Assembly: GCA_008632985.1 (NCBI GenBank)
Contig: QPGO01000035.1
Span: 49,899 to 113,898 of the forward strand
Source: Psammoneis japonica
Taxonomy: Eukaryota
Direction of reading: 5' to 3'
DNA: 64,000 nucleotides
Below are positions 17,288-52,769 of this stretch, piece after piece (position 1 is the first letter of the stretch; the number at the start of each line of letters is the position of its first letter). A program made the translations under genes and the position numbers. The notes beneath the pieces were generated by a model, which worked only from the letters and a program-made list of their open reading frames with translations, did not search any database and was not told the origin of the DNA.

Positions 17288-17799
17288 CTTGACATTCGTC
17301 GTTCTTTGTTGCCGCTTCGTTGTTTCATGTTTCGTAGAGTAGAGTATTTTACTTTTGTGTGTTGGTGTTTGTGTGTGATTACTTTTATTTTTTTGCGAAT
17401 GAATACAAATACCGTAGGTAGAGTACAGGCAGTATGTAGTAGTACAGTAAATGACTGATCAATGACCTTCCACCCAAAATTTAGTCAAGTGGCATAAATC
17501 TGCTTAGATTGAAATGACCACAATGCCAGCAAAAGTGAGTGTGTTTCGCTCGTGCGTGTGTACGTACAGTACGGTACTGCAGTAATTTCTCGGACGTTTT
17601 TGTTGCCTGTTTTGTCGAAGACAAGATCTAAAAATGTCAATTATTGGATCCAACAATTTTTTTTTCACTTTTTTTTTCACGTTGTGAAAACCAGCAAAAA
17701 CATACACTGGGGATCTTGCGAAGATGACCCGTGCGTAAAACGCACAGATTACTTTTGGACGTCCGTGGAAATCTTCTCCCACGGGTTTTTGTACAAGAA

Positions 17800-20700: not shown

Positions 20701-23700
20701 GGCCACCTTTTGACCACAATGACAAGCTGTCAAGAAAAGCCAGCACTGGACATCCTGCACATGAGAGCATCACAGAGCTGGTGCCAGACAATGGAGAGTG
20801 GAATTTTTGGCTTGTCCAAAAGAACTTGAACATTTGAGAGAGGAGCTCAAACCCAGGAAGGTGCCCACCTGCATGTCACAACCTCACAGCCTTCTTTTTT
20901 TGTTTTCTTTTTGATCAATCTGGAAGCACTTTTTGTTGATGTCCATGCTGTGCACACAACCTTGTCTCATCATTTGCAATGAGAGCTGATGAGCCCAACC
21001 CAAAGTGGGTCATGGCCTGTCCATTGTGGGGTTGTGGCTGTTGCTGAAGGGGTTGTGGCCAATGTGCTGAGGTGCTGTGACCATTGTGTTTTGAGTTCAT
21101 GCCCAAAGTGCAGAAAAAAGACACAATTTAAAAAAAAAACAACTCTGGCAGATGTTTGTGCAGCAAGTGCTGGCTGCAAAAAAAAACTGCACTCAACTCA
21201 TTTCAGTGCAACACCAGCTCTAGAAAACTCATGCATGAGAAAATCTAAGTTGCTGCAGAACAAGCATTTGAATTTGCAGGAAGTGGCAGTCTTGATGTGA
21301 CAGCCAGAGGACCAGCCACCAGCGCCAGCTGTGCCATCACCACCCATTTCCACATCACCTGCTGATTCCCACCAAACCACTTTGGACCAGTTTTGCCAAC
21401 AGTTTTTGGCTGTTGCAGATGCCACCAAATCTGCAGTCAGACCTGACTCAAAAATTCTGTTGTCCCCAAGCACAGGATCTTTGAACATTTCAAAAACAAA
21501 CACTGCTTGTTGGGGGTGGCTGCTCAAAAAGAAGAGCACATGACAACCATTGTTCTCTCAACAAAGCAGCATGTAAATGCAGGTGCATTGTCTGCATTGT
21601 CACTCCAGCCTGCAGTGTGCATTGCCTCAAGCTGGGGCCAAGATGGAGGATGGGAAGTGGGGTGCCAAATGTGAAGCCAGCCAAGCATCTTTCTGTGCAT
21701 GATGGGCTGATGTCCTCTGTTTTCAATGCCGGCTCCCAGCTTGCTGTTCTGCCCTTCAACCAGCCCCTGCACCCTGCTTGTGTGACCTGCTTTTAACCTC
21801 ACTCTCCGTGCCTGTTCTGCATGGTGCCCCTCTGGTGGGTGACATGATGCACGAGCTGCTTGTGTGCACTTTCCAGACAGTGAGCAACCTGCAAGAGTGC
21901 TGCAAGCTGCACTTGCTTCTCTCCTTGCTGCCTTTGCTGCCTTTCTTTCTCTCTTCTCTCTTGCTGCTGCAGCTCCCCCCTTCTTCTGGTGGCACCGCCC
22001 CCTGTTTCTGGCCCTGGAGAGAATTTCTGTCTTTTCAACTCCATTGTGCAGTGTGGAACATTGTCCAGAAGAGTGCACACAGAAAAATGTGTGTGCCTGG
22101 CATGCGGTGCATGACAAAAGAATGCACATGCCACATGACAAAGTGCAACACATGCCACAACCCAACAGCTCAAGGTTGAGGTCCCACCCAGAGCTGGAGC
22201 TCATTGGGCTGGCACACTGGCAAACTGGGGCATGCTGCACACTTGACTTTCCCTGCACAGAAGTGTTGGACTCTTGGGCTCTGCCCACCCACCAAGAGTC
22301 TGATTCTTCAGTGTGCTGGGTGTTGTTTTTTCTCAGTGATCATTTGTTTGGAGAAGCAGCTGGAGCCAGAACAACCTGGACACACAACATGGTTGGCATC
22401 ATTTTTTCACTCCAGAGCCATTGAGCCCCACATGATTTCTGTGTGTTTTTCACTGCATGAGCAGGAGTTGGTTTGACTGCAACTTCCAGCACAGAACCAG
22501 TTCCACAGGAGAAATGCACCTCAGTGTTGAACTGTCCCGCCATGGCTGTTGATTTCTTTGATCTTGGAGAAGTGTCTTTCACAACTTGCACGGCATGACA
22601 GGAGCGCAAAACATTCCTTGGAAATGAAAGGGATGCTTTCCATTGTTTGCATTCATGTGACAATTGATCTTTGGTCACATCTTGATGCACTTGGGATGGG
22701 AATGCAGCAACATCCTTTGCACAGTGAGACTGAAACAGCATTTCATTGCCTTGTTTTTTGAAACCACAGTGGCAGAAATGTCACCTGCTGGAGTGTTTCT
22801 TGTGCAGTGGTCTCAGACTGACAGGATGCAAACTGTGAGTTTCCTTTGGGATGTGATGTGCACGCAATTGTTGCAACAATCATTGCAGTTGCAAGCCTCA
22901 TTGGGAACCACATGTCAGTCACAACCTGATGGCTGTTCTTTCCACTGCATGCATTCTTGTGCACTGAAAGACTCTTCTTGGCACTGTCCAAGCAGCAAGG
23001 TTGCATCTCCTTCCTCCACAACAAGCACAACAGCCATTGCAGCTCAGTTCACCAATGAACATGTTGTCTGCATGGTTGTTGCCATCATTTCTAGCAGTGT
23101 GATTCCTTGCTGCAGCAAGACTTTGTCCTGATGACACAGGTTCCTGCATCTGCAGTGTGAATGAAGCAACTCTCTTTTCCCTGGCAAGAACAATCTGCAT
23201 CAGCTTTCCAATGTCCTCTCCTTTGTTCTCTGCTTGGGTGTGTGGAAACAGCACAAATTGCCAATGCAAGCTTTGTTGCCAAGCACAAAAGAGCTGGCTG
23301 AAACTGCAGCTGCAGTTTTTGACATGAGAGGCACTTCCATCACCACCACAACTGCAGGGCTGGTCACCAATGCAGCTTGAGCACCCTGCCCTGAGGTCAC
23401 TGCACAGCTCATGACAAGCATTTTTTGCTCTGACACAGGATCCATCTCTCTCAAAAAGTGTGCCCCCCACTGCCACACAGCAACTTTCTATTCCAGTGCA
23501 AGAGACATCTCTGTGCACCTTTGTGTGCTCATTTGTCTGGTTCACCTTTTGAACATGCTCCGTTGCCATTGCAGCTGTTGTCACCAACATTGATGTCCGC
23601 GGTGGTGCATCTTTCACCATTGCCTTTGCATGAGGCAAACAACCTGGCTGCAAGGTTTGAGCCAGTGCAAACTGGTGTTTGTCCTTGGCAGATGCTCAAG

Positions 23701-26700
23701 CTGTAAAATCAGGTGAGAAACTGGAGCTCAGGGCACGAGATTTGCACTGACTGCTGCTTCTTCCAAGGAGATGACTGCTGGCCTTACAAACAGCTGAACA
23801 ACCACTGTCAGGGGGTTGTTGTTCTTGATGCACTCCTTCATCTGAGACCAAGGTGCACGGGCAAAAAGCAACATGCCATGGCCAGCGTGGGGACACAAAA
23901 AGAGATCCCTCCCTGTGACACCCAAAACCAGGCTCTTTCTTCCCAAGCATGCATCTCATCAGCATTCATGGAATGTGAGAGAAGCTTCCTGGAGAAAACA
24001 AACAAGAGCAACTCTTGCCTTCACAACAATGGAAAAAAAAATGTGAAACAATTTTGACTGGCACAAGCCCAATGGACTTGTGAATGGCTGCACTGCACTG
24101 CAGCACCCATGACTTGCAAGTGTGGTGTCAGGGGAACCCCACACACGGAACTCAAAGTGTGCGACTCAATGTTTCACAAAGGGGCAACACATCCATGCAC
24201 AAAGATGCAGGCAAAGTTTAAACTTTTTACACAAAATGTTCATTGTCATGTGTTTTTGAAAGTTGATTTTGACATCATGTGGGTGGACAAAAGGAAAAGA
24301 GAAAAATGAGAGGGAAAATGGCTGTGGGTGCTCACACAAAAATCTCAATGGGAGAAGGGTGCCTCTTCATCACCCAACTCACTGCTGGTGAACTCAGTCT
24401 TGGTTTGGCTGTCATTTGGTCAAAGACAGCAGAGCAAAGTGTGCAAGTTGTTTGCTCCTTCTTTTGGGCATGTGCTGAAGCACCTCCTGCGGTCACTGCC
24501 ACTGCTCTGTTGAACCATCTTTTGCCCCTTACAACATTTTGTCACTTGCACATTGTCCCTTGCACCCTTTCCCTCTCTTCTTTTTACCCAGTGCACCCCT
24601 GCGCCTTTGCAAGCAGCTTGGCACCATGAGTTGCTGCTGAGATGAGAGTGGAGATGAGCACAGCCAGCAAAAGCAAGCTTTTGACAACATTGTCACAAGC
24701 ACTGGCATGGCAAGCCAGTGCTTTGTGGAACAAAGTTCTGTTCTGCAACTCACAAGCTTGCTCATTTCAAGAGTGTGCAAAGATCACAAGGTCTTGAAGG
24801 GTCACCACAGATGACCCCCTGGGGTTTTCCAGATCTGCCTGCATTGGCAAGACATGCTGAGCCTGCAACTTTGCATTCTTGGGATCTGTGCCTGCCAATC
24901 ATTGGCTCTCTGCTGCTTTGCCATTGTTTGTGCACTTGATGGACATCCTCTCCTTTCTGGGAGGTGTGGCAGCTTGACCACTTTTTCTGGAGGTGTGCCA
25001 AGAACAGGTCCGTGCCCCCCCCCCCCCCCCCAAAAAAAAAGCCAAAATCAATGCTGTTGCACTGAGCATCTCATGCAAAGTCCAGCTCCTCACAAAGCTG
25101 CTGCAATGACAAGATGCTGCCTCTCAGCTGCAAAACAGAGTGGCACACTGCTGCCTGCTCAACCATGAGAGTCTGTCCTGAGGTTTTAAGTGGAAGAGGG
25201 GGGGGGGAGCAGCAACAAACTGTTGAGAACAACACTTGGTGGAGTTGTCTGTGCACAAGTTGTGTGGACATGAAGCAAGACATTTGACCAGTGAAAACAC
25301 TCAAATTTCTCATCTCCAAGGAAGAAAAACTTTGGCCACCTAAATTGACCTTGGGGTTGTTCTCCAATGTGCACCAATGCACCCAGCAAAATGTTTTTCT
25401 CAGAACTTTCCTCCATCAGCCATGGCAGAGCCAGTGGCCCTGGTGGCACACACAGAATGTTTGCTCCAACAACCTGGGACACACCAGACAGCATTGTCAG
25501 GCAAGCTTTGGCTTGTCAGATTTGATGTTGCCTGGGTTGCAGTTTGCCTTTTCTTGCTGGTTGACTCCCCCCAGCAGAGATTAGAGTCTGGTTGTGCAGC
25601 CTGTCACAGAAGCAAGTGCCGGCACTGTTGGCTCCTTGAGGAGCCTGCCATTTGCCTTTCCTTTGGAAGAGAGATTTGATGTTTGCCCTCCCTGGCTGCC
25701 ATCCCCACCACCTGCACCAGCACCATGACACATTCATGCAAGAAAAGTGGCCCTCTGTTGTCTGTTTGGTGATGGCTTCCAAACCAAAATGGCAGCACTG
25801 TCTAGCTTGCAACTGTCTGGAGTTCAGTTGGACATTGAAACTTTGCAGGTGTGCACACTGCAGTGTCTTGCACATGCTGACAAATCAACAGCTGATGGTT
25901 GAAGGAGGAGACAGTGTCATCAGCCACCAGCCCACTGTCATCATCAGATGGAAAAGTCTCTCTCAGCTCATTTGTGTCAACACCTTTGTTTCACTTGGGG
26001 GACTGCCTCAACAAAATTCACCATCTGTTTTGGTGGGAAAATGATCACTTGTGGGGCCCACCAAAAATTGGTCTGTTGAAAAGACACCAAAGACTCAATG
26101 TTCACATTGTGATGAGATTGTTGGACCAACTGGAGGATGGTTGAGCCCACATGGAAGGCTGAGCATGTTGAGCAGGCTTCTGATGGAGCCAGCAGTGTGG
26201 ACTGAAAGCTGACTTGCCTGATGGCTCCCCACAGCAGACAAGTGAAGTGTGCTCTGAAGTGGAGCCTGACAGACAGGGATGGACCAGCAAATTGCAGAAG
26301 TGGTGCTGTGAGAGGCCAAAGGAGCAGAGACAGATGATCCCACCATGAAGGAGGTGCAACCACTGACACACCAAGCCTCTGCCATCTCTCACTTTGTCAT
26401 CACTGGCACTGGCCACTGCTTTGCTGGTGCTGGCTTCAGTTCCACCATGAGCAGGGGGGCACCCAACAGGGCATCCTGAATCTCAGTGTCAGTCAACAAA
26501 GGCTGTCACAGCAGTTCCTCTGCAAGCTTGTCTGCCTTTGGGGAGCACTGCTGAAGAAACAGCATGTTGGCAGAGGAGGCCAGGAAATGACTCAGGACAA
26601 GCACTTTGGCACCTGAAGCCTCTTCTCACTGATGAGACAATGATGCCAAAAATTGACACAGCTGCAAAGAGGTCACTGACCTGGGCAGCAGCATGGAAGA

Positions 26701-29700
26701 AAAGGGCCCTCAAATGCCTTTTCCTTGCAAAGCCAAAAATTTGTCATGGAGCTTGGGCATGAGCTTTGAGAGGGTGCAGTCCCTGTGCAGCTCATGTGAG
26801 ATCCCAGTCAAGGCCAGGGCAGAGACTGCCGGTTGCTGAGAGCAATCTCAAGTTCTGCTGCAAGATGATCACAAGGGGTGAGGTTGACTGCAAAGTCATC
26901 AGGGGAAGCAGATGTGTGGTTGAGAATGACTCCTTCAGATGGAGTGTGTCTGTTCCCATGCATCTGGCAGAAGCATGGCACCAGAGCTGACACCATCAAG
27001 AGCAATGCAGAACTTGTCAAAAGAGGTGTTGGGGGGCCACACCAGGCCAAGAGGAAGATCAAAGCATGGGGGCAGCAGGAAATCCTGGGGAGCAGTGCAG
27101 CATCACATGGAGGTGGCCTGTGCTGTGCACCAGGGTGGTTTTGCAACCCACTGCTTGATGCCATGGGACCTGCTTGGAGCCCAAAAGGACAACAAAGTCA
27201 GAGCCAAAACGGTGGCAAATCAGCAAATGGCACTGAACTTGGTGCTGCCACCCACAAGGCAAGATGGTGCTGACTGCAAAATGACCAAGCATTGAGTCCC
27301 TGACAAAACAGTCCCAAGGTCATGGGCTCCAATTCTTTTGCCAGAGCATCCTGAGCAAAAGACGCCACCGCAAACGGAAAAAGGGCAGATCAGGTGCTGG
27401 CACACCATGTGAGGCCAAGGCCACTGGCAGATGACTGTGACTTTGACAGAGAGACACCACAGCATCTCCTCATGCCACAACACTGGGGCCACTGACTGCA
27501 GAGTTGTCACAGGGTCAGAAAACAAAGGGGTCTCACCACCCAACAGCAACAGGACACAACAAAGTGGGTGCATGGCAGCACGCCACCAGAGGTGGAGGTG
27601 CTGTGGCTGCTGGCACAAGCACTGGGGGCACTGCAAAACATTGTGCCATCTGCTGCCACAGCCTGCACCCCACATGTGCTGAGACAATGGTGGTCAGACC
27701 ACTGGCATCCATGGCTGAGCTGCAAGCAACAGCAATGTCATCAGATGCCAATGCTGGCATGAAATCACCACAGCAGGAGACCAGAACAGCACCCCAGGAT
27801 GGAGCCAGTGCTGCTCATTGGGATGGCCAGAATGCTGATTGCCAGAAAGAAGGCACCAGATCCACAATGGAGAAAACAAACTGTGCCCAAAAAGAGACAC
27901 CAATGGCAGCACAGCAGCCGCTGCTGCCACCATGCTGGAGCATCCCCCCCACTGTGACTTGACATGGACATCAGAATGAAAGAGGAGAGGGCTCACAGAA
28001 CAAGAAAAAGTCACTCTCTGCTCATCAACATTTCATGCAACATTGTTGATGAAAAGAAAAAGCAAGGTTGCCATGGCTCATTCTGGTGCCTCACATTGCA
28101 TGCCGCTGCTTTTATGACAGCTCAACTGATGCACAAGCAGCCCACACACAGATGACCAGCACTCTCTCCCATTGGCCTCTAATCTGTGCTACATCAGCAT
28201 GGAATTTGTTCCTGGAAAAGATCTTTTCTTGCAAACTTCTTCTTTCACACAAGTGAAAAAAAGGCTCTTTGGGGGGTTGGTCAAACTTTGTCCATTTGCA
28301 AGACACTCTGCCAGGCAGAGTGCTTGCAGATGATGACTGCAGCAGATCATGGGGTCACAGCAAGTCAAAAGCTGGTTGTTGGCATTTCCTGGAAAGTTGC
28401 AGCTTGTCTCCCACAACAGCACCAACCCCAGCAGAAATTGGCAGTTTTGCCCACCCAAAGACTTGCCAAAGGTTGACAAGTGGCATTTGAAGCATCAAAT
28501 GTGCAGCTCTCATGGGGCCAGATGAACCCACCAGTGTTTGGGGGTGATTCAAGGCACATCAAAATGACACAAAGTGTGGGAAATGCGATCCATCCTTAAA
28601 AAGTTGCTGTGCCTTTAAGCATGTGCAGCATCAGAGAATGTCTGACCACTTTGCCCAAGGAACACACCACTCTGCAAGAAATTGGTCAAGACCACTGAGT
28701 GGAGTTCTTCACTTGCAGCTGTGAGTTGAGCCCAAACTTCAGCTTTCATGAAAAGCTGGTTGAGTCCAAGGTTTCTTTTCTCTGCAGTCAAGAAGCACAC
28801 CCTTCTTGGTGTGGTGAGTGTGTTGGTCTCTGGCTTGACCTTGTCCAACTTTGAGTGTGCCCAGATGGTAAACTCAGAGCAGACACAGTGCAAAAACAAT
28901 CACTGTTGCATCAGGCATTTAGAAATGACACATGCAGTGAAGAAAAGCACCCCACTCACAGTCCAGCACCTCATTGCAGGGTGCAAGCCAAGCCAGTGCA
29001 GTCACAAGAATGCACAAAGCAAAGCAAGTGACAAGCAAGGATAAAAAGAGAAGCCAGCTGTGAACATTTTTGCACAACAAGCCTTTTCAACAGCTTCAAG
29101 TGGAAAGTTGAGACACTGTCAACTGAGTTCAGTGCTGCAGGTTTGGCATCAACATTGTCATGACTCCTCCTTCCTTTGTGAACAAGAAGAGAACAGCAAA
29201 ACCTCAACTCCCCACCCCAACACCAATTTGCAGCCACTGGACAAGAGGTTCTTTGATTTCTTGCTGCTGCACAAAGCAATCTGGAAAGCACAATGGACAT
29301 TTCCAATCTTGCAGACCATGTGTTGTGGAGCATTGGATGAAGCCTGCCAGACAAATGGAGTGCAACCAAGTCAGGTCCATGGAGAACAGATGACATGCAA
29401 TTTGCTGCAAGCAACATGCCAGCACATTGGCAAAGCATGTGGTTCTCAAGGCCATTGTGTGCAAGACATCAGCTTTGCCATCACATGGTCAACTTGTGCA
29501 TTGGCTGTCATGTTGCGGTGCACAAACCACATGGTTTGGTCCTCCAAGAGCAGCCATCATGAAGTCAGCAATGGACATGTTGCCATCAGCATCTGTGCAG
29601 AACTCACAAAGCACATTTGAGCCCATTTCAGCACACCAACAAAAATGCCAGCTTCAGCCAAACATCCTCAAAGATGTCACATTGCATGAACTCAACAATG

Positions 29701-31100
29701 CCTCCACCAGATTGGCCTGTGCCAAAGCCAGAGCATGGATGGCAGCTCAGGTGGCCTGCCAACAGGTCTCTCACAATCTTTTGTGCTTTGGCACATTGAC
29801 TCTTTTTCAGCTCTGGAAAAAACACACACCTCAGAAACCACCACCAAATGCACAACAGAGCTCTTTCACTTTGTGAGACTCTGAAGCTGGGTGCCTCGCA
29901 ATTCTTCGTTGGGTGCTGCTCCCAGCTCAGGAATGGGCTCCCTTCCACTTGGGAAGATGTGCGGCACTGCCACCCAGACCTGTTTGGTCTGCATTCTCAA
30001 AAGTTGATCCACCCCAATGTCTTTAATCTGGAGATGCAACAATCATGGTGTGTGCAGCCAATCAACCAGACAGCTTGTTTTTGGGTCACAAGGCAGGGGA
30101 GCCTCAGCTGGCAATGTTTTTTCAGGCAGCATCTCTGTCTCAGCCTGTCCTTTCTCTGACAAGGAAAATTGAGTGTGATGACCACCGTTGCCATCAGCCA
30201 TGTGAAGAACATGTGCTGCAGTCTTGCCCTTCTGCAGAAGAAGCCTGGTTGTTGCAGAGAAGCAGCGCACAGCAGCAGAGTTGCTGGTGCCTGGTGCATG
30301 CCAACAACATTGCCTGGTTCCAAAAAAAACAATAAAACCACCCTAAAAACCAATCACATTTTGAGCAGAACCCATGTGTGGGTTGGGGGGCTGCACATCA
30401 TGTCCTTGATTTCATCATGCTCCAACTCAATGGTGATTTGGACATTGGCAAAAATTCCTTGAATCAATGGCACTGCAAATGGAGCAACCACAGTGTGAGA
30501 GGTGTGCTCTGAATTCTTGCCCTGCAGCAAAGCTTGCCATTCTGTGGACTCGTGTGACAAGTGCAAGAGACCTCACAAGATTTTGTGTGGTGCTTGCAAT
30601 GACGACAATCACTGGGAGTCTCAATGAAGACTTCATCAGTGTTTGCATTTCCACCACTGCAAACCCAAACCGAGCAGACAAAACCTTTTTCTCTTCGACA
30701 ATGCTCCCTGCAAGCACACCTTGGCAGCCTTTGTGGAGATTTGCACTTCAGGATGTAACCCAAGCTCCAATTTGGCTGTCAAGAACCCGATTGAGTCCGG
30801 AAAAGTGTCAAAGGTGAGTTTTGGCAGAGTTCTGTGATGTGATGGTGCTCGCACCTCAGTGGCGTTCAACAAAATGTTCCAAACGTTTTGCTCATTTAAG
30901 CAAACAAAACTTAGATTCTGGGAGCATGCATTGTTGCTCATTTTGGCTGCCAACAAAGAGACTGCATCCTTTCATTTGCCCTCCTTCAGATTGTGAGAAC
31001 TGCAGTTGGCGTGACACGCAGAACCGCAGCAGTGTGTGGTCGTTGAACAAGAGCCATGGTTGCGATCGGATCACGAGCTGACTTCCAAGTCAACACCGTA
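17800..31100. other. Highly degenerate repeat/transposon field depleted of both TpA and CpG and enriched in TG/CA
   Basis: TA and CG are very rare over ~13 kb. The many overlapping Cys/His/Gln-rich ORFs almost lack Tyr. Individual elements could not be identified by eye. Confidence 0.75.
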
Positions 31101-31297: not shown

Positions 31298-31528
31298 CGA
31301 ATAAATCTCGATGCAACGAAAGAACAAGCACGATGCCTTAAGTCTAAATAGAAAGCAGCAACACTGTCAATGCGAACCTAAACCTGATTAGATTGTGAGC
31401 GTGTCGCTGCAGCACCACTCGATCCACACATCTCAACCAATCACCAATTGCAACATGGCCCTCCATCCAGATTTACTCGGTCCCCGCGAAACGGCAATGA
31501 CAATGCCGATTCGTCCAAACATGTAACA
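31298..31528 (-). repeat. 3' LTR of the copia element
   Basis: Starts with TG just after the PPT on the minus strand; 31298-31479 matches the other LTR with 9 substitutions. Confidence 0.85.
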
Positions 31529-31643
31529 TCCTCTCACAGAGAGGCAAACCACAAGAACCCAAATTAAACCACCAGATGTGCTGGCTTGGGAGGCCACGAT
31601 ACGTGGGCGCGAGCCACAGGTGCCTGGCCTTGGTGTCGGGACA

Positions 31644-33368
31644 TCACCAAAAAACACACGAGCAAAGCTTCCATCGCCGCTCTCCTGCAACCACCTTCGT
31701 AAGTAGATCGGCCAAGTTCGTTTCCGCATCCTCCTTGCCAACACGAACAATTCCCGCTGCGACCGCTTCTCGCACAACATGGCAGTTGATGGCATTGTGC
31801 TTCTTGTGCAAAACCGACTCGGGTGCACTTACATTCTTTACAACACCGCGATTGTCACAAAAGATGCTTGCCGGTCCTTCAAGGGGAACCCCAAACATGC
31901 GAAGCTTGTGACGCAAAGCAACAATCAATTCCTTACAAATCCGCATCGCAACCAATTCACTCCCAAACGTTGCCGATTCCACCGTGTTCTGCCGCTTGCT
32001 GAACCACACCACTGGCGCGTTGTTGACGAATGTCAGAATCCCGCCATGCGACCTGCGAGTGACAACATTCCCTGCATGGTTAGCATCAACAAATGCACAG
32101 ATGTTTGCCGGATTACCACGAGGCTTCGGTGCCCGTGGCGGCAGTTCCTCCTCGACGTCCCCGTAAAACTCGGTCCAGTCTGCGTTCAAATTGAAAATAG
32201 ATTCATCAATCACCGGTTCCTTTGGATCAAATCCGATGCATCCGACGTTCTGGTGTTTCTTCATGTGCGCAAATGCATGACACAATGCCTCAAGATGTCC
32301 TTTCCTCGGATTAGCTTGACATTGAGATGGGATTGAAACCTCATGCAAGACATCGATGCGACCCAACTCGATCGCCCAACGACAAATCCCCATCAGCTGC
32401 AAACACCTGTCCACCAAGTCGGGGCCTAACTCGTCCGTCACGTCCAGCTCCGGTTTGCATTTCGGGGGCAGTGGATCCTTTGCACTGTTCTTCAGAACCT
32501 CTCCATTGCTGTCTTCATCCAATGGGCCTTCCACAGTCTTGATCGTCGATTTGACACATGACCTCGGTGAACTCGCCCAGATTGTGCGCCCATCCTGAGT
32601 CTGAACCTTCTCAACGTTAGCTCCAAGATGAACTTCTGGTTCTCCTTCGCTGCCGGGCTTCACGGCACAGTGTTCACCTGTTGCAGTGACAATGGACTTC
32701 CCTTGATGGGAAATGATTGGTGTGTCATCGACATGAACCAAAAGCATTTCACAATGCTCGCGCCCATCCTCACGAGTCGCCGCACGCAAGTGGACATCTG
32801 GGTCCACTCTCGTCGATGCGAAGCCCAAGTCACGTAAGACCGATGACAGTGCAGACCTCCAAGAGCATCCCGAGCTCTTTAAGCCATGTGATGCCCGAGT
32901 GACAACAAGTGCCTTTCCTTCGCACTCGCCGCATTCCTTTCCACCTTCAAACCACATCTTTTCTGCGCACGGTGCATTGAGGTGAGCATTCTCCAGATCA
33001 ATCACCGTAATGTCGATGCCATTCAAGGCTGCCAACAAGAATCCAAGTCGCACACTGTCTCTGGAAACCACGCCAGAGCAAGTGATCGATGCCGGGGCCT
33101 CTGTCGTGTGTCCGCCAGCTGCAAACCTTGCCTTTCTGGTGAAATCCATTTTAATGTCGAATGCCATGTGGCACCTGATCTCCTGATGACCGCGCAAAGT
33201 TGCGCTCTTGCCTTCCCGGACGACTTGAGGGGTTTCAGCTTCGTGCTCGCGCCATGCCACCTTCACCTTTGCCATCTCCTTGTTGATTGCACGAGCCCAA
33301 CAATCTGTCCCCGTTTCCTGATCAATCTGCAAAGCGTCCTCCGTGGACTTGGGCAATCGGACCCCCAA
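31644..33368 (-). pseudogene. Copia reverse transcriptase / RNase H region
   Basis: FDIKMDFTRKARF.AGGH, VVSRDSVR, NA(Y>H)LNAP, (Y>H)GLKSSG, V(Y>H)VDD, FVDANHAG, WFSKRQNTVES.TFGSE, NLADLLTK. Only one Tyr in 574 aa. Confidence 0.9.
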
Positions 33369-35334
33369 ACTTGTGAGTCATGCGCCAGCACTTCTTCTTG
33401 ACCTTGGACACAACGCAATTCCGTTTGCGCAGGACATGTGTGACCCACCAAGCAAAAGCAGGTTCCTCCGTCAACCTGTTCGCAACAGCACACTCAGCAA
33501 CTTCAATGGGGTTGGAGTCCTTTAGATCTTTGAGTTTGACCCAAGATGAGCTGCCATCCTTCCATCCGACCAATGACTTCCATCCTTTTGTTGTGATCTT
33601 CTTCTTCTCCTTCCCGTCAGCGGTTTGTACGGTGCCGTCAGCAATTGACACCGCATGGGTCACTCCTCTCGTGGTCCTGCATCTCGTGTGAGATAGAACA
33701 CTGGTTGCCCTCGCTGTCGACCTGAGCAAACATGTTCTCGGCAATGACATTGGCTGCACACTTGTCTGTGGTTCCGTCGGTGTGTTCCACTTCGTGTTCG
33801 CGAGTGTCAAACAATGGGTTTTGATGCCGAGTCCCAATTGGATGCCCATCCTGTCCTCTTGCACGTTTCGTTACAACACCACGTCGCTCGCCGTCGGTTC
33901 CGATGTCAAACACAAGCTCCATTCCCAGGTGTTGATCGATTGCCTGCTCGTCGTTGTCGTCTGGTCATTCGTTGGGTGACAGCATGTTGCCATGTTCCTC
34001 GTCCTCTGGCGTGATGCTGCCCTCACATTCCACACCGAGGTTGCCGTCAATTGCAAGATCGTCCAACACGAATGCGGGTGCAGCTTCATCGCCCTTTAAG
34101 ACAAAGTCAGCATCGTCCAATCACTTCTCCAGCTGCTCATTAAAGTTGTCGACCTCAACGCGAATGTCCGGTTGCACCATGTCAGCCTGTGTCACGTGCT
34201 TGACCGATGTTTTGGAGACAATCTTCCTGCTTTCCGCAACAATCCAATGGCACATGTCCGAGCCAACTTTGTGTGAGACACCAAGCCACCGTCCAAGCCT
34301 TCGAGGATCGTCAGTTGCACTCAGCTTGTTGGGCCTGTCCCACCACCACACCATGTCGTGGAAACCAAAATCCAAATGCTCGCCCATCTCTGGTGTCTGC
34401 CCAGTGACCTCTTCATGTCCAGTCCTCTTGTCCCTGCCTCTTGCCATGCGCGACACTAATTCGACTCGCAAACAAGACCAAAATCCCACAATCGCTTTGG
34501 CACCTTCTTCTTCGTCATCCGCAGCCGCCAACATTTGGCTGAGAAACCAATTTCGCGCTCCGCTGCCTGGTTCTGGTTCTTCCGACCCTGCTCTGATGTT
34601 CTCAATTGCACTCTCATGCGTCGTGCGTGTCTCACAAATTCGGTGCTCCTTCCTGTGAACTCTCCTGCCCCGTCCGACATGAGACATTCTGGTGCACCCA
34701 TGTCGTCTGTGAATTCAACAAGAGACAAACCTGCCTCCGACCTGGCGGTCATCGGCACAACCTTCACGAATCTGCCCTGAGCACAAACATTGGCACACGT
34801 GTCACCGAGTGAAGACTTCACCTTGGATGTCAAAGTGTCAACAAACCATGTTCCTTTCAGACGCTTCCGATGCAAGTCAAGATGATCCACCCTCACTCTT
34901 CGTGACATCGGCTGGGTCGCCGTTCGCACACCGCGCTGAGTTGTTACATTGAGAGTGTCTTTTGCCGTTTCTAAACCGACACTCCATTTTCGGGCCAGCT
35001 CTTCAGCATCAACCTTCGAGTGCCGATCCTTGCTGCACAAATCTTTGACTGCCCTCTGCCTCTTGTCCACATCGTTGCGACATGTGCAAGCCACGTTCAC
35101 TGAGCTGATGAGCCTGTCGCAAAACGATTGAAGTTGACAGATGGGAGACACAGACGACAGTTGCATTTCGACCTCGCCCCAGCGTGCTGCTTGGGACTTT
35201 GCCTTCTCGCTCCTCAATTCCGAGACCTGTTCTTGTCGCATGCCAGAGGTTAATGATCGAACAGTGCGCATCTCCGCCTGCTCTCTAGTGCGCTCCGGTG
35301 AGCCCATGTCCATCTGTGCTGGATCCCATGTCAC
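33322..35334 (-). pseudogene. Copia integrase and linker region, frameshifted
   Basis: WFVDT...SDGAGE...EQGRKNQNQAAEREI DDE-like core; LGRWLGVSHKVGSDMC.W; TTKGW...WKDGSSSWV.LKDLKDSNPIEVAE, typical of diatom copia pol. Confidence 0.8.
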
Positions 35335-35870
35335 CTGTCAACAGCACAACCGGCAAGTTCTGCACTTCCCAATCCGTCGGAACACGAGACTTGAAAGACA
35401 CAATTGTCCCCGTGGTGTTGAAAGGGATGAAAGCTTCGTCAGCTTCAATGCCAAATCCGTTTCGGGTGTCGCAAGGGTTGTCATGTGCGGGCATGTTGCA
35501 CGCACGGAGTTGGTTAGGATTCAAAAGTGAGTGTTCCATGTCGGTCCCAAACCAGAGCATTTGATCACCAACCAGCAAATGTTCACGAGTCGTTTCCGGA
35601 TCTGTCCATGCGGTGCAACAACGTGCCACAGGAATCTGTTTGATCGGCTCACAAGAGTCCAGAAATGGATGTACCTCGCACACTTCATTTGTCATCTCCA
35701 TGAGCTTCCAGTTCGCCCCAGCGCAACAAGTGTCCGCGTGAGTGTCACATTCATTTCGAGCGACAAACCCAGGTGTCGTCAAATTTGTCATCTGTGCAGA
35801 ACTCGTCGATCGGATCACACGTTTTGATGTCACGGCAATGTGCCTCTTTGTCGCCTTTCCTTTGAAACGA
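35285..35870 (-). pseudogene. Copia aspartic protease region
   Basis: RNECDTHADTCCAGAN motif (diatom copia ELDSHADTCC-type) and SLLNPNQLR. Confidence 0.75.
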
Positions 35871-35974
35871 GACATTGGGTGGGGTTCAGTCAACAGCAAG
35901 AAGAGCAACACAAGCAAAAACGACAAGTGTGCCAAATGCGCCAATGCTCCAGCAGCTGTTGCCACCCCAAGGAG

Positions 35975-37565
35975 TCAGGTGGAACCATTGTAGGCTCCCT
36001 GACCGAAGGCGCATCCATTGCGTCCACCGCGATCCCGGTCAGCGCCGCGACCACGCCCGCTGCTCCTTTGCTCCTGATCCTGTTGTTGGGTTTGGCCTTG
36101 GCCATCTTGATGGACTTGGGCTTCAGCTGCATGCCTGCCGCCCCCATCGTGTCCTTGTCGACCTGCGGGAGACCCACGGCCACCACCGCGTCCATGACCC
36201 ATTCGTTCGCGAGCTTGGAACACGCAGCTCATGCCTCCGTTGCACTGTAACTTTTCCCATTCTTGAGCGCTAAAGCTCCTTGCAGGGTCGGATGCATCGA
36301 CTCCATTGATCATTGCAGTGTGGTCACCACCTCCACCTTGACGGCCACCACCGCATCCGCGTCCACCCCCACGTCCAAATCTTCCTCCGTGACCGCGACC
36401 TCGATAAAAACCGCGGCCACCGCGCCGCCACCACGGCTCATTTCAGAAATCTTGCGCTTCGAGCAGTGCCGGGCTTCCAACTGAGCACCTGCATGCAAAC
36501 GAGAGACTTTGGATGAGAAATGAGCACATGCCCCCACGAAGTCACGAGGGTGCTGACTGCCAATGACAGCCGTTGCTGCAACAAGACGAGTGTCATCCGT
36601 TCGGATCCCTTTTAGAAGAATGTCAACTTTCTGTCGTTCAGATTTGCGGTCGTCCGGTGATTTGTTCAAAGCAGCGAAAGCACTGGTGAGTTTCTCATTG
36701 AACTTTTCGAACGGGAGCGATCCTTCCTTTTTGTAAAACAAGGTTTCAATGGTTGCCGCAGCCAGATGGATGCACTTGCTCAACTCGCCCTGTCCATTGC
36801 AATGGTCAACCCATGCGTTGAATGCTCCACGTCCATCTTCTGTCGCGTCAAACGGTTCGATCCATGCCCATCCTGCCGTGTCGACCAAGTGTTCCTTCAA
36901 CATGCGGTGAACGCTGCGGTTGTCCTCGTCACATGTGGCGCCATTCAATGGCATCTGGCACATCGCTGTTGTTGAGCATCCGTGAATGCAGCCGGAGCTG
37001 GCATTGTCCTTGCAACATGGCGAAGGGGTTCTTTCAACACGCCAAATTTCTGTGCCAAGAGATTCAAGAAAGCATCTTCGCACACATCGAAGTCATCGGG
37101 CTCAAACTTTACGAGACCGCTTGCCGACGCGTCCGAATCCGTGCGCTCCTTTTCGATGCGCCTGCCATTCCAGGCCGCAGCCACAGCTGCTGCATTAAAG
37201 TCTGCCGCAACCAATGGCTGATTCCGTTTGAGCAAATCCTGGCACCACCATGCTAGCGCCTGTAAGTTCTTGATCTGAGTGGTCCCAAGAGTCACACGTC
37301 CGTCGGCCACCGTGCGACGAGACGCCCTCTGCGCCATGTCTTCCACATCGTGGTCACTCTCCATCACTGCGATGTTTTCCAAAGTCGCGAACCCTTCACA
37401 GAAGACCAACCTCGCCCTTGCGTTCTGGTCAGCAACACCACAAACTTGCAAAACTGCGTCAACGTCAGCTGCCGCGGCTGACGCCGCAAGTGCTGCTGCT
37501 GGTGCTGCCGCTGCTGCCATCCCATGACAGAGAAAGGGTGCAAAGGTCCCGCACCGGGAACACAC
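35975..37565 (-). pseudogene. Copia gag, frameshifted
   Basis: ORFs 36945..37565 and 36310..37083 (AWIEPFDATEDGRGAF, KVDILLKGI) plus a Gly/Arg-rich C-terminus, directly downstream of the 5' LTR/PBS. Confidence 0.75.
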
Positions 37566-37979
37566 AGCTGTGAGTCTGCATGGTCATGATGGCGCACTTT
37601 CTCTGTGTTGTGATGACGGGTTCACACAGCCACCCGACGTCAGGGTGATCAGTCCTGTGTCGTTCATGTCAACCGACATCATTGAGCACACGCTCGGGCA
37701 TGTCGCCCAATGCCGCAGTCCCTTCACACCCGTTGCACATGTGAGGATAGTGACTGTCTTTGCGAGTGTTACCATTGCAAGCTGTTTTTGTGGATGTTAT
37801 AATGAGCGACACGAGACGCATCATCGTGCGCATCAATCCGAATTCTGATGCATCGCGCACAGTTCAGCACCGTTTCTACAGCTGCACGTTCCATGCAAAC
37901 AACACAACAAACAATCGTCCATGACGAATTGTATTCGAAACCATTTCGCTCTGTCTTTTTCGTCTTGGCTCTGACAAAG

Positions 37980-38161
37980 CGAATAAATCTCGATGCAACG
38001 AAAGAACAAGCACGATACCTTAAGTCTAAATAGAAAGTAGTAACACTGTCAATGCGAACCTAAACCTGATTAGATTGTGAGCGTGTCGCTGCAGCACCAC
38101 TCGATCCATATATCTTAACCAATCACCAATTATAACATAGCCCTCCATCCAGATTTACTCG
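37980..38161 (-). repeat. 5' LTR of the copia element (lacks ~49 bp present at the start of the 3' LTR)
   Basis: Ungapped match to 31298-31479. Confidence 0.85.
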
Positions 38162-38199
38162 ATGGGACAGTACACAGGGAAAAATCTATCGAGAAAAGA

Positions 38200-39669: not shown

Positions 39670-40242
39670 CATTTCCAGCGCCAAAGTTGAGAGGGAACCT
39701 GTCACAAGGCACATTTCAAGAATGTCGTCGAGCTCCATGAATGCGTCGTGTGAATCAGAAAAGGCGGTTGAAACGGAGTCATAGAGTCTACCATGCACAG
39801 TGGCCAATACCACCGATATTCAGCCTCATCGTGTCGGCATAGGAAAGAGTATCATTAACAAATACCTTGAATTGCCGCTCCTCCGCATTCAAGGTCTATC
39901 TACTCACTCTCTAAATGGATTGTGGAGCTCAGCATCGAAAAGAATAGTTTTCTAACCACATTTCCAGCGCCATAGTTGAGAGGGAACCTATCACGAGACG
40001 CCTTTCAAAAACGTCGTCGGGCTCCATGAATGCGTATTATCAATCAGAAAAGGAGGTTGCGACGAACTCTTCCAGGCACAGTGGCCAATCCCAACGATAT
40101 ATCCAGCCTCATTGTGTCGGCATCGGAAAGAGTGCCATTAACGAATATCTTGAATAGCCACTCCTCCGCATTTCAAGGTTTAACTACTAACTCTCGAAGA
40201 GGAGTGTAGAGCTCAGCATCGAAAAGAGGAGATTTCTAACCA
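39670..40242. repeat. Diverged tandem duplication, ~289-bp unit x2
   Basis: catttccagcgcca..gttgagagggaacc...gagctcagcatcgaaaaga..ttctaacca occurs at 39670 and 39959. Confidence 0.85.
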
Positions 40243-40559
40243 ACTTTGTTTTGGGCCAAGTGAGTCAGTTGGAAATCCTCTGCATCATGCTTGGGCTTTG
40301 CACCCCAGACCCCGACTATGGCAAGGAAATTAGCGGGCATCTGGTGATTGCCTTTCATGGTGGTGATGGCCAGCTTGCGATTCCTCAGTGGCGTGGAACG
40401 AATGCAGATGTCGAAGGTTTCGAGATTCGTTTCATAAGATTTTGAGCCATCCATTGCTGGCAGTGGTAAAGTATCAACATCCTCCATCTGCTACTACGCT
40501 ATGCTTCTAAGTTCTACAAGTGCCCTTTCGTGACACTAAACTCTTCGGCCGCTGAGTCG

Positions 40560-41460
40560 TTACCCAGAAACCAAGTCGATAACAACAGGACGTCCAAGCG
40601 GGAAAATGAGATCGGTGAGCTTGAGCATTTGCCCCTTGTCGTTGTCTGTCAGATACTCCAAGAGTCCTGCTGCTTTCAAATGGAACAGGGCTCCTCGGAA
40701 GGTACTGGCAGCGCAACCAACTTTGGCTGCCACCTCACTGCGGGTGTGCTTCTGGCCGTCAATCAGGATTTCAAGAATCTTGCATTCAAAGCCTGTAAGC
40801 TTCTCTTTGACTCGTTCCTGCAGTTCTGCCGTTGTTTTCTTGTCACCGCCGCTGCCGACCTTCTCGATCCCAGCTTGAGTGAGACTGGCGGGCGCACCTT
40901 TGGGGCAGACCACGAGGCCTTGCTTATTGAGATTCGCCAACGCGTTCCGGAAGGTAGAAGATTTGGACGAAGTCGTCCTTTTTATAGTGCTTGAAAAAGC
41001 ACAACCTGTTGCCGCGGTGGTGACTTTAAGCCGAGGTCGTGGAGCTCTTTCAACGTCACCAGAATCTGTTGCTCAAGAGTGATAGGGATTTGCGAAGGAG
41101 CTTTGTGCTTGGCTACACGGGTCTTCCGGACCGCTTTCGGTTTTGCCGAATGACTGTTGGCTCCACATGAAGTTGTACAGGAGAGGCCGCAGTGGCGGGA
41201 AGGGAAGCGGCCTTCTTTGCGATCATGGCAGAGATGAACACATATCCTTTCTCTTTGTTACTCTGGATAGCATACTCAAGGCCTGCGGTGTTCTCAAAAT
41301 CCACCCAGCGACTGGCATGCGTTTCTTCCAGGTGATACTTGAACGTGCAGCTGCACTCCTCAACAGCACCATCGAATGAGCTCATTTGAAATACATGGCT
41401 TACTAGCGCTTCATATGTCGGCTTCTGGAGATCTTGAACCGTGAATTCCTTGGTTGGCAT
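40560..41460 (-). CDS. Unknown protein with PB1-like N-terminal region and winged-helix-like C-terminal region (copy A; interrupted)
   Basis: ORFs 41113..41460 and 40560..40940 are homologous to 41859..42410 and 42515..42955. The domain labels are inferred from sequence pattern only. Confidence 0.5.
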
Positions 41461-42039
41461 GGATACGAAAGACGGGGTTCATGGTGATGCTTGATGGCAC
41501 ACTGGGAGAGCTGAAGTTGTGCCATCGGCAGGGACACAAAATGGTGTCCCGAGTCTTGTTGGCGACAGTATGAAATTTTCGCACAAGTTTTGTGGGAAGA
41601 AGCTAGACATGCACATACAACACTTATTGCCCACATCCACAAGTATACTGTCTAAATATAGACCATTCTTTTCCGTTGTCGTTGGAGCCCGCCGCCACCA
41701 GACATAGAAAGATACTTACACCGACTGTAGTGCATTTCTGCCACAGTTTGAGTTTAGCTCGCGCCTCATTCTATGTTTTATGGCGGCGGGCTCCAACGAC
41801 AACGGACAAGAATCGCCCACATTTTAGACACCATGCTTGAAGGTACGGGCAATGAACGTTGCATGTGAGTGTCTCGTTTCTTCCCTCGAAAACTTGTGCG
41901 AAATTTTCATTCTGTCGCCAACAAGACTCGGAGTGCCACTTTGTGTCTACTGTGAATAGACACATTTCAGCTCTCACGAGAACATCACCAAGCATCACCA
42001 TTAACCCTCTCTTTCGCATTCAAGTACGCTTTGAGAACG

Positions 42040-43010
42040 AGCCAGGCAAGCCAACCAAGGAATTCACGGTTCAAGATCTCCAAGAGCCGACGTATGAAGC
42101 GCTGGTCAGTTATGCATTTCAAATGAGCTCATTTGATGGTGCTGTTGAGGGATTCAGCTTCTCATTCAAGTATCACTTGGATGAAAAGCATGCTAGTCGC
42201 TGGGTGGACTTCGACAGCACAGAAGGGCTTGGGTATGCTATCCAGAGCAATCAAGTGAGAGGATACGTGTTCGTCTCCGCCTTGATCTCAATGAAAGCTG
42301 CTACCCTCCCCAGCAACGCTGTCCCTTCTGCGCAAGTCCGCGAAGAATTGAAACCAAAAGAAGAAACGAAGACCCACGTCGCTACGCCACTCCTGCAAAA
42401 CTCCATGTAGCAGCCAGCCGTAACTCATCGAAGCCAAAAGCGGTCCGGAAGACCCACGTAGCTAAACACAAAGTTCCTGGGCAAGCCTCCGTCCCTCTCG
42501 AGGAACATCTGCTGGTGACGTTGAAAGAGCTGCATGAATTCGGCTTAAAGTCACCGCTACGGCAGCAGGTTGTGCTTTTCACGAGCGCTCTAAAATTGAC
42601 GGCTACTTCCAAGTCTTCCACCGTCAAAAACACATTGTCAAAACTCAAAACGCAAGGACTCGTGGACTACCCCAACAAAAACACAGTCAGTCTAACTCAA
42701 GCTGGGATCGAGAAGGTTGTTACAGGTGCTGCTAAGGTAACAACCAAAGCACTCCAGGAACGAGTCGTAAACAAGCTTGGAGGCTTGGCACTCAAGATTC
42801 TCAACGTCCTTTTTGACCGCCGCGTGCACACCCGTAGTGAGGTGGCGGCCCAAGTCGGTGACGCCAGCGAAAAAGAGAGTACCTTCAAAAACGCTAGGCC
42901 CTATGTCCAAGTTGAAGACATCAGGCCTGCTAGAGTATTTACCGGTAAAAGGTAGAAAAGTCTCTCAAGATCACCGATCTCATATTCCCGGTGGGGAGTC
43001 CTGTTCCTGA
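42040..43010 (+). CDS. Paralog of copy A in inverted orientation (copy B; frameshifted)
   Basis: Shared PTKEFTVQDLQ.PTYEALVS..FQMSSFDGAVE, RWVDF, SLTQAGIEKV and HTRSEVAA.VG. Confidence 0.5.
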
Positions 43011-46500: not shown

Positions 46501-47069
46501 ACCAGCAGCACAGCATCAACAACACAACATTGCCAATGTTTTGTCATTGAACATGCCACAATCACACAGCAGGAGGGTTGCCTTCAACAATGGTCACAAG
46601 AGTGCACGCAAAACCCACATGCCTCTTTGAAGTTTGAAGAACAAGGCACAACTCTGCAGAGGACCAGCCGCTGTTGGCAAATCAAGTCATGAGCCTGGCC
46701 CAACAATGTGCAAAGAGGGCTGCACAGATGCTGTCCTCATTGTGCAAACTGCACAGAACATCATGATGCACTCACCTGACAAAGCTTTTTCAACAAAGTG
46801 GCAGAAAGGAGGAGCAAGCCTCTCCAACCAACCACACCACAGCATCACAAATGCATGATTTGGAGCCCAGCTTGTGGTCTCTGGCTTCTGTGCGCAAATC
46901 GCACCCACCAGCACCTGAAAAGCCACCTCACCTGTTTTGTTCCAAGCCTCGTGGAAGGTTTCTTCTTTGCTTGGTTTCATCATCATGATGCTGGTGGAGC
47001 TCTGTGAATGTGAGTTGGGCCTTGGCCCTGCCAACCACAAAACAAAGCCATGCTGGAATGCATGCACAG

Positions 47070-50172: not shown

Positions 50173-50198
50173 TGTTGTTGTTGTCATTGTCATTGTCG

Positions 50199-50245
<47 letters not shown>
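50173..50245. repeat. (TGT)n microsatellite
   Basis: About 24 tgt/tca triplets. Confidence 0.9.
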
Positions 50246-50246
<1 letters not shown>

Positions 50247-52755: not shown

Positions 52756-52769
52756 TGTCATCTCAAATG

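Follow-up and report, generated by a model that had tools for sequence, protein, structure and literature searches.

What removed the tyrosine (Tyr) codons from a reverse transcriptase (RT) frame that is otherwise well preserved, and in which the YVDD motif reads HVDD? The frame lies in a 64,000-nucleotide (nt) stretch of Psammoneis japonica contig QPGO01000035.1 (hereafter the window, to which all positions refer) and belongs to a Ty1/copia-type long terminal repeat (LTR) retrotransposon on the minus strand. The initial annotation of this DNA ascribed the loss to a mutator converting TA steps to CA or TG. In this study, the RT change proves real and highly non-random, and that reading was right about its direction, specificity and stop-codon logic. 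The most probable explanation, in which we have considerable confidence, is a region-confined, post-integration TpA>CpA/TpG hypermutation of transposon or foreign DNA in a diatom-like genome.

A reverse transcriptase frame almost devoid of tyrosine

The retrotransposon comprises the following features, where ORF denotes an open reading frame:

31298-38163, minus strand: Ty1/copia-type LTR retrotransposon, recognised by its LTR pair and RVT_2 frame
31298-31481, minus strand: 3' LTR, direct repeat of 37980-38163; 7 TA, about half of its TA sites mutated
31482-37750, no strand assigned: TA-depleted domain of the element with CpG kept, taken from the dinucleotide map
31644-33377, minus strand: RT-RNaseH frame, 577 codons from stop to stop, open; one Tyr; YVDD changed to HVDD
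33364-35809, minus strand: Pol upstream of the RT (protease-integrase part), collinear with relatives of full length; Tyr-free, in four frame pieces
35975-37583, minus strand: presumed gag, overlapping ORFs in shifted frames, assigned by position only
37980-38163, minus strand: 5' LTR; 16 TA, its TA sites unmutated

Two features expected of a Ty1/copia element were found, namely an RVT_2-type reverse transcriptase at 31644-33377 and flanking long terminal repeats in the form of a 184-nt pair. The RT-RNaseH frame matches Pfam RVT_2 (PF07727) with an E value of 1.2e-9 and 38.6 bits against a cut-off of 31.6. A protein collection holds 1155 relatives of it at E<=0.001, and nearly all of the best 120 of these carry the PF07727 annotation. 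The initial annotation described a protein of 574 aa reaching 33368; that limit is the start of homology, and the frame itself encodes 577 aa. Its claim of a single Tyr holds: the frame contains one Tyr (position 405) beside 23 His and 22 Cys, and its 1734 nt include 16 TA, 138 CA and 164 TG steps.

For comparison, we aligned the frame with 33 relatives of near-full coverage picked from the 64 best-ranked matches, which are 53-68% identical to it. Each of the 33 has 15-27 Tyr over the aligned columns; the Tyr frequency of the window RT is 0.05 of theirs, while Cys is raised 2.8-fold and His 1.5-fold. At the 17 columns where at least 70% of the relatives have Tyr, the window reads Cys (TGT/TGC) nine times, His (CAT/CAC) seven times and Tyr once. 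The motifs GHQEI, ITCSG, NAHLNA, SHGLKSSG, EHCEMLLVHVDD and INCHVVRE, singled out earlier as places of lost Tyr, are all in the translation, and the consensus of the 33 relatives has Tyr there. In total, 62 of 347 conserved columns are mismatched, 16 of them by Tyr to Cys or His. Because so few conserved columns mismatch, the RT can be described as a well-preserved sequence minus one residue type.

The loss extends over the whole of Pol. The four protease-integrase frame pieces, which overlap slightly at their joins, have no Tyr in 816 codons, and all 1390 codons of Pol hold 1 Tyr, 48 His and 48 Cys, whereas relatives have 3.0-4.8% Tyr. Against 12 distant relatives, the protease-integrase part offers only five conserved Tyr columns (2 His, 1 Cys and 2 Phe in the window), too few to add much.

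Direction and dinucleotide specificity of the change

The mismatches were then read backwards. The CA or TG overlapping each of the 62 mismatched codons was returned to TA, and we asked whether the consensus residue came back. This rule, with 301 candidate sites, restored 30 of the 62. Two control rules have 2-3 times more candidate sites and restored far fewer: changing C>T or G>A in other contexts restored 1 of 62 (609 sites), and changing T>C or A>G anywhere restored 5 of 62 (821 sites). The 30 restored mismatches consist of the 16 Tyr columns together with V>A, L>P, L>S, I>T, I>M, I>V and S>G, so that the accompanying L>P/S, V>A and I>T/M changes noticed earlier are present in the window RT. 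The statement that all changes are outcomes of TA to CA/TG was too strong; it applies to these 30 and fails for the other 32.

Two unmutated metagenome relatives served as outgroups. At the 16 TA steps that both share, the window keeps TA once and reads CA seven times and TG three times, whereas retention of the other dinucleotides is mostly 36-91%, with CT (1 of 10) as the sole exception. The contrast between 1 of 16 TA steps kept and the general retention of other dinucleotides indicates that TA is the ancestral state and that the change is specific to TA. Collectively, the conserved Tyr columns, the two outgroups and the LTR pair described below bear out the direction and the kind of mutator first suggested.

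The LTR pair, strand symmetry and timing

The two LTRs are 184 nt each, lie 6682 nt apart and are 95% identical, or 100% identical in purine/pyrimidine coding. They differ at 10 of 184 positions, and at nine of these the 5' LTR has TA where the 3' LTR has CA or TG. Expressed by site, 9 of 16 TA but 0 of 9 CpG have changed, and the divergence outside TA is 1 in about 150. Judged from this pair, the change would have arisen after the LTRs were made, that is, in place and post-integration.

The change shows little preference for strand. The CA and TG counts are 603 and 535 in the element, 1557 and 1463 in block A, and 1164 and 1098 in block B (both blocks are described below). The equal numbers of His and Cys in Pol and the near-even CA and TG counts point to action on both strands, and the outcome of one-sided editing is not seen. 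Local strand bias is mild, being strongest in the bin at 28900 with 152 CA against 95 TG.

As a separate observation, the depletion is uneven along the element. The 5' LTR and a 230-nt leader (37750-38163) keep all TA, the 3' LTR has lost 9 of 16, and the centre of the element is the most depleted. Such a shape could come from transcription-linked targeting, from spreading out of the centre or from a recombinant element. The element flanks show no target-site duplication, as the flanking sequences do not match, and no canonical TG..CA ends were found on the LTRs, which read CGAG...TTCG. Recombination between copies may account for both absences.

Frame damage in the element

Seven relatives of 1331-1413 aa align collinearly with the element by tblastn, from residue 2 to the end and from about 35810 to 31647, in five frame pieces; in these full-length relatives the RT lies within the C-terminal 570 residues. 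Frame changes in Pol fall near 35334, 34470, 33655 and 33366, and in-frame TGA stops occur at 34121-34123 and 33965-33967. The upstream ORFs in the presumed gag region are 36945-37583, 36310-37092 and 35975-36442. No Pfam domain match was obtained for the protease, integrase and gag pieces. In the other copies seen in a public sequencing run (X1, described below), indels lie at the Pol shift points (33362/3, 33657, 34461/2 and 35329) and in the presumed gag region (36421, 36963 and 37593). Only two of these sites fall in homopolymers, 33362 (a C5 run) and 33657 (GGG). With at least four frameshifts and two TGA stops, this copy is dead several times over, and the RT-RNaseH piece alone remains open.

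Further TA-depleted blocks and spared DNA in the window

To place the element in its surroundings, the dinucleotides of the window were mapped in 500-nt bins as observed/expected ratios (o/e). Background DNA has 39.5 TA and 55.9 CG per kb, with a TA o/e of about 0.55. The element interior (31482-37750) has 6.9 TA and 63.5 CG per kb, with a TA o/e of 0.07-0.28 per 500 nt and its minimum mid-element. Four to five regions of the window are depleted, among them two copia elements and one region bounded by inverted repeats. In addition to the first element, the map yields the following:

1-1653, plus strand: second copia RT, unrelated to the first and cut by the window edge; RVT_2 E 1.2e-35, partly TA-mutated
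17900-30900, no strand assigned: block A, 13 kb, TA and CpG almost erased; TA o/e 0-0.12, CG o/e 0-0.34
44800-54500, no strand assigned: block B, 10 kb, TA erased and CpG mostly erased; TA o/e 0-0.15
47070-48544, no strand assigned: inverted-repeat-bounded insert in block B, arms 47070-47221 and 48405-48544; TA lost, CpG partly kept

Block A has 2.8 TA and 4.6 CG per kb with a CA/TG o/e of 1.5-2.6; block B has 2.6 TA and 10.6 CG per kb with CA and TG o/e of about 1.4-2.6, as in block A. Relative to background, about 17% of the TA density is kept in the element interior and about 7% in blocks A and B. Inside all blocks, a TA o/e of 0.0-0.28 goes with a CA/TG o/e of 1.3-2.6. The block edges are sharp, lying within one or two 500-nt bins, and the flanking DNA has normal TA. 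In the insert nested in block B, the bins at 47501-48500 have a CG o/e of 0.48-0.69 and a TA o/e of 0.06-0.15, and the arms show six TG<->CA doubles in 160 nt.

Blocks A and B gave few clues to their identity. No Pfam domain above cut-off was found in their 56 ORFs of at least 120 aa, nor in 150 of their 165 ORFs of 65-119 aa, among them 46 in block B, which was covered up to 52248; just two sub-threshold Cys-rich matches appeared. A tblastn search with copia Pol proteins found nothing in either block, and purine/pyrimidine recoding revealed no LTR-like repeats inside them, only the nested inverted repeat.

The second copia RT repeats the pattern of the first. About 22% identical to the first, it carries the motif VVHVDD, and its composition includes 6 Tyr, 19 His and 16 Cys. 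At 14 columns with conserved Tyr it reads His six times, Cys three times, Tyr twice and other residues three times. Returning CA/TG to TA restores 19 of the 67 mismatches, compared with 4 and 10 for the controls.

Host-like genes and an 1152-bp tandem array are spared from TA depletion. The array serves as an unmutated control: its TA o/e is 0.4-0.78, and only 12 of its 66 variable columns are of the TA type. It lies at 5815-15247, consists of eight copies at 97-99% identity and has a GC skew of about +0.37. It sits in a giant open frame (ORFs 2456-17458, minus strand), parts of which match DUF7507, DUF11 and PT repeats, and which probably encodes a huge repetitive surface or secreted protein.

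Flank preference and order of events

The TA steps that survive in the three blocks (n=104) depart strongly from a random draw. Of these, 81 occur as TTAA, CTAA or GTAA, whereas the background share of these tetranucleotides is 218 of 869 (Fisher p 7e-26; chi-square over ten classes 145.5, p 8e-27). ATAT is absent from the survivors (0 of 104, against 8.2% in background), and ATAC accounts for 1% against 17.7%. With strand-symmetrised 5' flanks, survival rises in the order ATA < GTA < CTA < TTA in each of the three blocks separately. The LTR sites agree by our own reading: of the 7 TAs left unmutated there, 5 belong to resistant classes, as against 2 of the 9 that mutated. Based on these counts, ATA/TAT appear to be the most mutable and TTA/TAA the most resistant contexts, a selectivity that looks biochemical. 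As for a link between the flanking base and the outcome, which might tell adenine- from thymine-directed chemistry, trinucleotide gains for CA versus TG are inconsistent, and the LTR cases, again by our own reading, split 2 to 4.

CpG loss has another flank order. TCG/CGA is the most depleted context for CpG and ATA/TAT for TA, a difference that argues for two separate processes. The blocks can also be ranked by state. The copia element is the youngest, with TA mostly gone and CpG intact; the nested insert in block B is intermediate, with TA gone and about half of CpG left; blocks A and B are the oldest, with both gone. The apparent order is a fast loss of TA and a slow loss of CpG, as suggested also by the LTRs (9 of 16 TA against 0 of 9 CpG).

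Other copies and independent collections

Run X1 is a public run available as Logan contigs, in which single-copy flanks have a word depth of about 60x. The element reaches 1600-2700x, which corresponds to some 30-45 related copies sharing at least 85% identity, and the copies differ from one another by 544 transitions and 73 transversions. Depth over 26000-31000 in block A is single-copy. Between 26456 and 31073 (4.6 kb), block A differs from the X1 contigs at 23 places, including three TG<->CA doubles, seven CG<->TG/CA and two TA<->CA/TG changes, whereas none was seen across about 1.8 kb of normal flank. The TG<->CA doubles would be single ancestral steps resolved both ways. As X1 may be the source sample of the window, its agreement argues mainly against assembly error.

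Two further stretches stand out in X1. At 28136-28669 the summed depth rises to about 640 from a surrounding level of about 60, and several contigs meet at 28303-28533; this is a short segment of block A repeated elsewhere in the genome. At 39753-40386 there are two contigs, of which the first matches the window exactly and the second departs from it at 64 places; they represent divergent haplotypes or a recent duplicate.

Tyr-less ORFs also occur in public sets of predicted proteins, as had been anticipated. Four of 269 relatives, from ENA, Logan and JGI sources, have at most 0.4% Tyr and 7.8-9.6% His+Cys, compared with medians of 3.9% and 4.0%; one of the four reads CEMVLVHVDD. A cluster look-up returned no name for any of the Tyr-less proteins.

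Of 564 metagenome stretches encoding a relative, the best-matching 80 loci were compared. Their TA o/e is 0.46-1.0 in 78 cases; the remaining two, L042 (0.12) and L044 (0.20), are the closest of the 80 to the window and have normal CpG. At 16 outgroup-conserved TA sites L042 has CA/TG at 12 and keeps none, and at 15 such sites L044 has CA/TG at eight and keeps three. Where the window has Cys at a shared Tyr codon, L042 and L044 have His, and vice versa; one of them keeps a Tyr lost in the others. Because Tyr codons are resolved differently in these loci, the mutations are independent and recurrent. The in-frame stops of L042 and L044 are TGA where relatives have CGA. Apart from these two, five environmental copia relatives (L064, L023, L021, L079 and L011) have normal TA (0.55-0.65) with low CpG (0.22-0.38), a sign that CpG can also decay while TA is retained, presumably in different hosts.

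Stop codons and open frames

The initial annotation proposed that the mutator cannot create stops from sense codons and inactivates by missense. Enumeration agrees with this, as TA>CA/TG yields no stop from any sense codon in any flanking context. Existing stops are altered by the same change, TAA becoming CAA or TGA and TAG becoming CAG or TGG. For CG>TG on sense codons, the sole route to a stop is CGA>TGA.

The further proposal that long, intact-looking ORFs are left behind is only partly borne out, since the open RT-RNaseH piece fits it and the element as a whole, with its frameshifts and in-frame TGA codons, does not. When 55 random transitions were placed on an intact relative, the frame stayed free of stops in 497 of 2000 simulated runs, and for this reason the open frame is weak evidence when taken alone. 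Composition has an effect on ORF length. TAA and TAG together number 2-5 per 1000 trinucleotides in the depleted blocks against 15.7 in background, and the mean random ORF length is 38-41 codons against 28. The longer random ORFs explain why the window shows many overlapping ORFs.

Proposed mechanism and alternative explanations

In the hypermutation reading favoured here, transposon or foreign DNA would integrate and then be hypermutated in particular regions only. TpA would become CpA or TpG by A:T>G:C transitions confined to TpA, on both DNA strands, which would account for the loss of about 80-90% of the TA steps in the interior of the copia element. Such a loss turns all Tyr codons but one into His or Cys codons, alters many TA-ending Leu, Ile and Val codons and converts YVDD to HVDD; no stop arises from it, because TA>CA/TG cannot make one. 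The older neighbouring blocks would later lose CpG as well, which we take as the slower decay of methylated CpG.

Direction, dinucleotide specificity, action on both strands, sharp block limits, recurrence in independent copies and flank preference are all read from the sequences themselves; the chemistry is less certain. Adenine may be deaminated to hypoxanthine at 5'-TpA by an ADAT2/TadA-like polynucleotide deaminase directed to silenced chromatin, an assignment that we regard as nearly an even bet. A process directed at thymine is possible though rather unlikely: a modified T (of the hydroxymethyl-uracil or base-J-like kind) could be mispaired or mis-repaired to C, or a TpA-specific nick could be followed by error-prone repair. 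TpA is palindromic, and T>C on one strand is A>G on the other; a thymine-directed process therefore fits every count equally, and the flank preference can be read as a purine before T, in the order A>G>C>T. The sequence offers no argument against it; what tells against it is that the sole published candidate, itself a proposal, is an adenine deaminase.

Explanations that place the change outside integrated DNA fare much worse. Editing before integration, either A-to-I on element RNA by an ADAR/TAD-like enzyme or editing of complementary DNA (cDNA), fixed on insertion, would suit retroelements, which pass through RNA and single-stranded cDNA, and enzymes that deaminate adenosine in RNA prefer a U immediately 5' of their target, according to the Bigelowiella natans preprint (10.64898/2026.01.13.699255). 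It is very improbable, nevertheless. Sense-strand editing predicts only TA>TG, hence Tyr>Cys, in place of the balanced His and Cys and the 603 CA against 535 TG steps; the LTR pair differs at nine TA sites; the same signature pervades 10-13 kb blocks without retroelement features as well as inverted-repeat arms; and block A, at single-copy depth, differs from the X1 contigs. A technical artefact, in which modified TpA or CpG sites are systematically miscalled or misassembled, might be suspected from so extreme a depletion (TA o/e 0.00-0.12), arranged in blocks within a single assembly, and the frameshifts at 33362 and 33657 could themselves be assembly errors. Contigs at about 60x nevertheless reproduce the block A sequence, the pattern is shared by L042, L044 and the Tyr-less proteins of three other sources, and the flanking DNA of the same assembly has normal TA while the changes follow codon and homology logic; an artefact is hardly credible. 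Selection on the elements to avoid TA (UpA), whether to evade a TA/UpA-directed nuclease or to tune expression, can appeal to the UpA avoidance known in many genomes and to the under-representation of TA in the background here. It strikes us as equally far-fetched, because an element can gain no advantage by giving up its catalytic Tyr along with 15 further conserved Tyr, non-coding LTR sites are mutated too, and the frameshifts and stops mark a dead copy.

Several points count against region-confined hypermutation, or against parts of it. The 32 conserved-column mismatches without a TA origin are one. Blocks A and B lack recognisable domains, so that an origin from transposons or foreign DNA is an assumption in their case. 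Knowledge of the roughly 30-45 other copies comes from summary tables only, and X1 may not be fully independent of the window. At TpA, a palindrome, chemistry directed at adenine leaves the same sequence as chemistry directed at thymine. Finally, with no target-site duplication, the two LTRs could stem from different insertions joined by recombination, and different LTR histories would weaken the 9:0 asymmetry as proof of change in place.

Neighbouring genes and repeats

An intron-less ORF of 550 aa at 54828-56480 (minus strand) encodes a PhoX-like phosphatase region with an N-terminal fibronectin type II domain. Of its 292 relatives, the best overall is an unnamed MMETSP transcript at 56% identity. 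Among the best 120, the named relatives are all diatoms at 45-52% identity (Nitzschia, Seminavis, Cylindrotheca, Mayamaea and Extubocellulus), and the best named ones are pennate diatoms. From this one gene, the genome of the window appears diatom-like and distinct from Bigelowiella, for whose own proteins matches near 100% would be expected. Another ORF, at 60163-60936 (plus strand), carries an HSF-type DNA-binding domain (E 7.6e-15). A large imperfect inverted repeat of about 75% identity (40994-41570 and 41911-42580) lies in DNA of normal composition; no Pfam domain was found in the ORFs in or beside it (40470-40994, 41856-42410 and 42197-42955).

Significance and comparison with known systems

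A broader reading is that diatoms, and perhaps stramenopiles, alveolates and Rhizaria (SAR lineages) generally, possess a dedicated genome defence by chromatin-region-directed DNA editing, a mirror image of fungal repeat-induced point mutation (RIP) that deaminates adenine at TpA. We put this forward tentatively, as somewhat less than an even proposition. If true, the defence would inactivate transposons and integrated viruses through missense changes, with no stops made; combined with CpG decay, it would leave old insertions free of TA and CG, saturated with CA/TG and rich in ORFs; and the flank code, with ATA/TAT far more mutable than TTA/TAA, could identify the enzyme. On this view, the presence of mutated copies across several unrelated public collections would hint that the process is common in the sea. 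A narrower version, in which a single promiscuous ADAT2-like deaminase performs both A>I at TpA and C>U at CpG, seems improbable.

Natural DNA hypermutation at adenine/TpA was first reported in 2026, in one chlorarachniophyte only, and to find its signature close to saturation in a diatom-like genome, and again in metagenome contigs, would extend the process to major marine primary producers. The flank preference, the apparent order of TA first and CpG later, and the finding that tandem repetition alone is no trigger offer handles on the enzyme. There are also practical consequences. Depleted regions give long spurious ORFs and Tyr-less, His/Cys-rich 'proteins' that are already in public collections; transposon dating is distorted, as LTR divergence is inflated by TA sites; and homology searches miss old insertions. 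Base-editing research would moreover have an interest in a natural TpA-specific DNA adenine editor.

Fungal RIP converts C:G to T:A mainly at CpA, creates TpA and stops, and is triggered by duplication. Similar to RIP, the process described here is post-integration, limited to regions, made of dinucleotide-specific transitions on both strands and destructive to transposons. The direction is the opposite, however: TpA is lost and no stops are made, as in a mirror image, and the array of eight 1152-bp tandem copies at 97-99% identity is not hypermutated.

APOBEC3 and ADAR act on cDNA or RNA before integration, in a strand-asymmetric manner, by C>U or on RNA. The likeness lies in clustered, deaminase-type transitions that disable retroelements, and in the preference of ADAR for U before the edited A. 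In contrast, the change in the window is symmetric and at the DNA level, and the strand asymmetry was not encountered.

Decay of CpG by methylation and deamination would explain the CpG loss of blocks A and B (CG o/e 0.0-0.3, with TG/CA as products) and the CGA>TGA stops of L042 and L044. CpG decay leaves TpA untouched, however, has another flank order and is much slower here (0 of 9 LTR CpG against 9 of 16 TA). In diatoms, transposons are methylated and RID-related DNMT4 genes of unknown function are present, according to a paper on diatom methyltransferases (PMC9998398).

The closest counterpart is Bigelowiella natans. In the available text of the preprint by Mettrop et al. (10.64898/2026.01.13.699255), 231 of 302 mutations in mutation-accumulation lines fell in an integrated giant virus and virophage, 230 of these 231 changes in viral DNA ran A>G or T>C, each one at TpA, and the TpA rate was about 1000 times background in some lines only. 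The same text describes 324 low-TpA coding sequences enriched in RT and DDE domains and proposes an ADAT2 homologue as a candidate editor; it makes no mention of CpG, flank context, trinucleotide, tyrosine, stop codon, copia or diatom (10.64898/2026.01.13.699255). Our literature searches found no report of TpA hypermutation in diatoms.

Both systems share exclusive A:T>G:C change at TpA to TpG/CpA, confinement to blocks, and low TpA coupled to high CpA+TpG as a long-term trace. They differ in host and target, a chlorarachniophyte with integrated viral DNA versus a diatom-like stramenopile with LTR retrotransposons and unassigned blocks. They also differ in extent, the window being near saturation (TA o/e 0.0-0.1, against 0.45 for the nucleocytoplasmic large DNA virus region of B. 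natans). Furthermore, unlike in the B. natans report, the old blocks here are CpG-less as well, a flank preference is visible and Tyr is erased. The B. natans rate was measured in real time, whereas the present process is known from sequence comparison alone, the sole hint of a raised rate being the 23 places at which 4.6 kb of block A departs from the X1 contigs, against 0 in about 1.8 kb of normal flank. Collectively, the element is a further case, in a different major lineage, of the TpA hypermutation recently described in B. natans, to which the window adds near-saturation, a flank code, the order of TA before CpG and the sparing of a tandem array.

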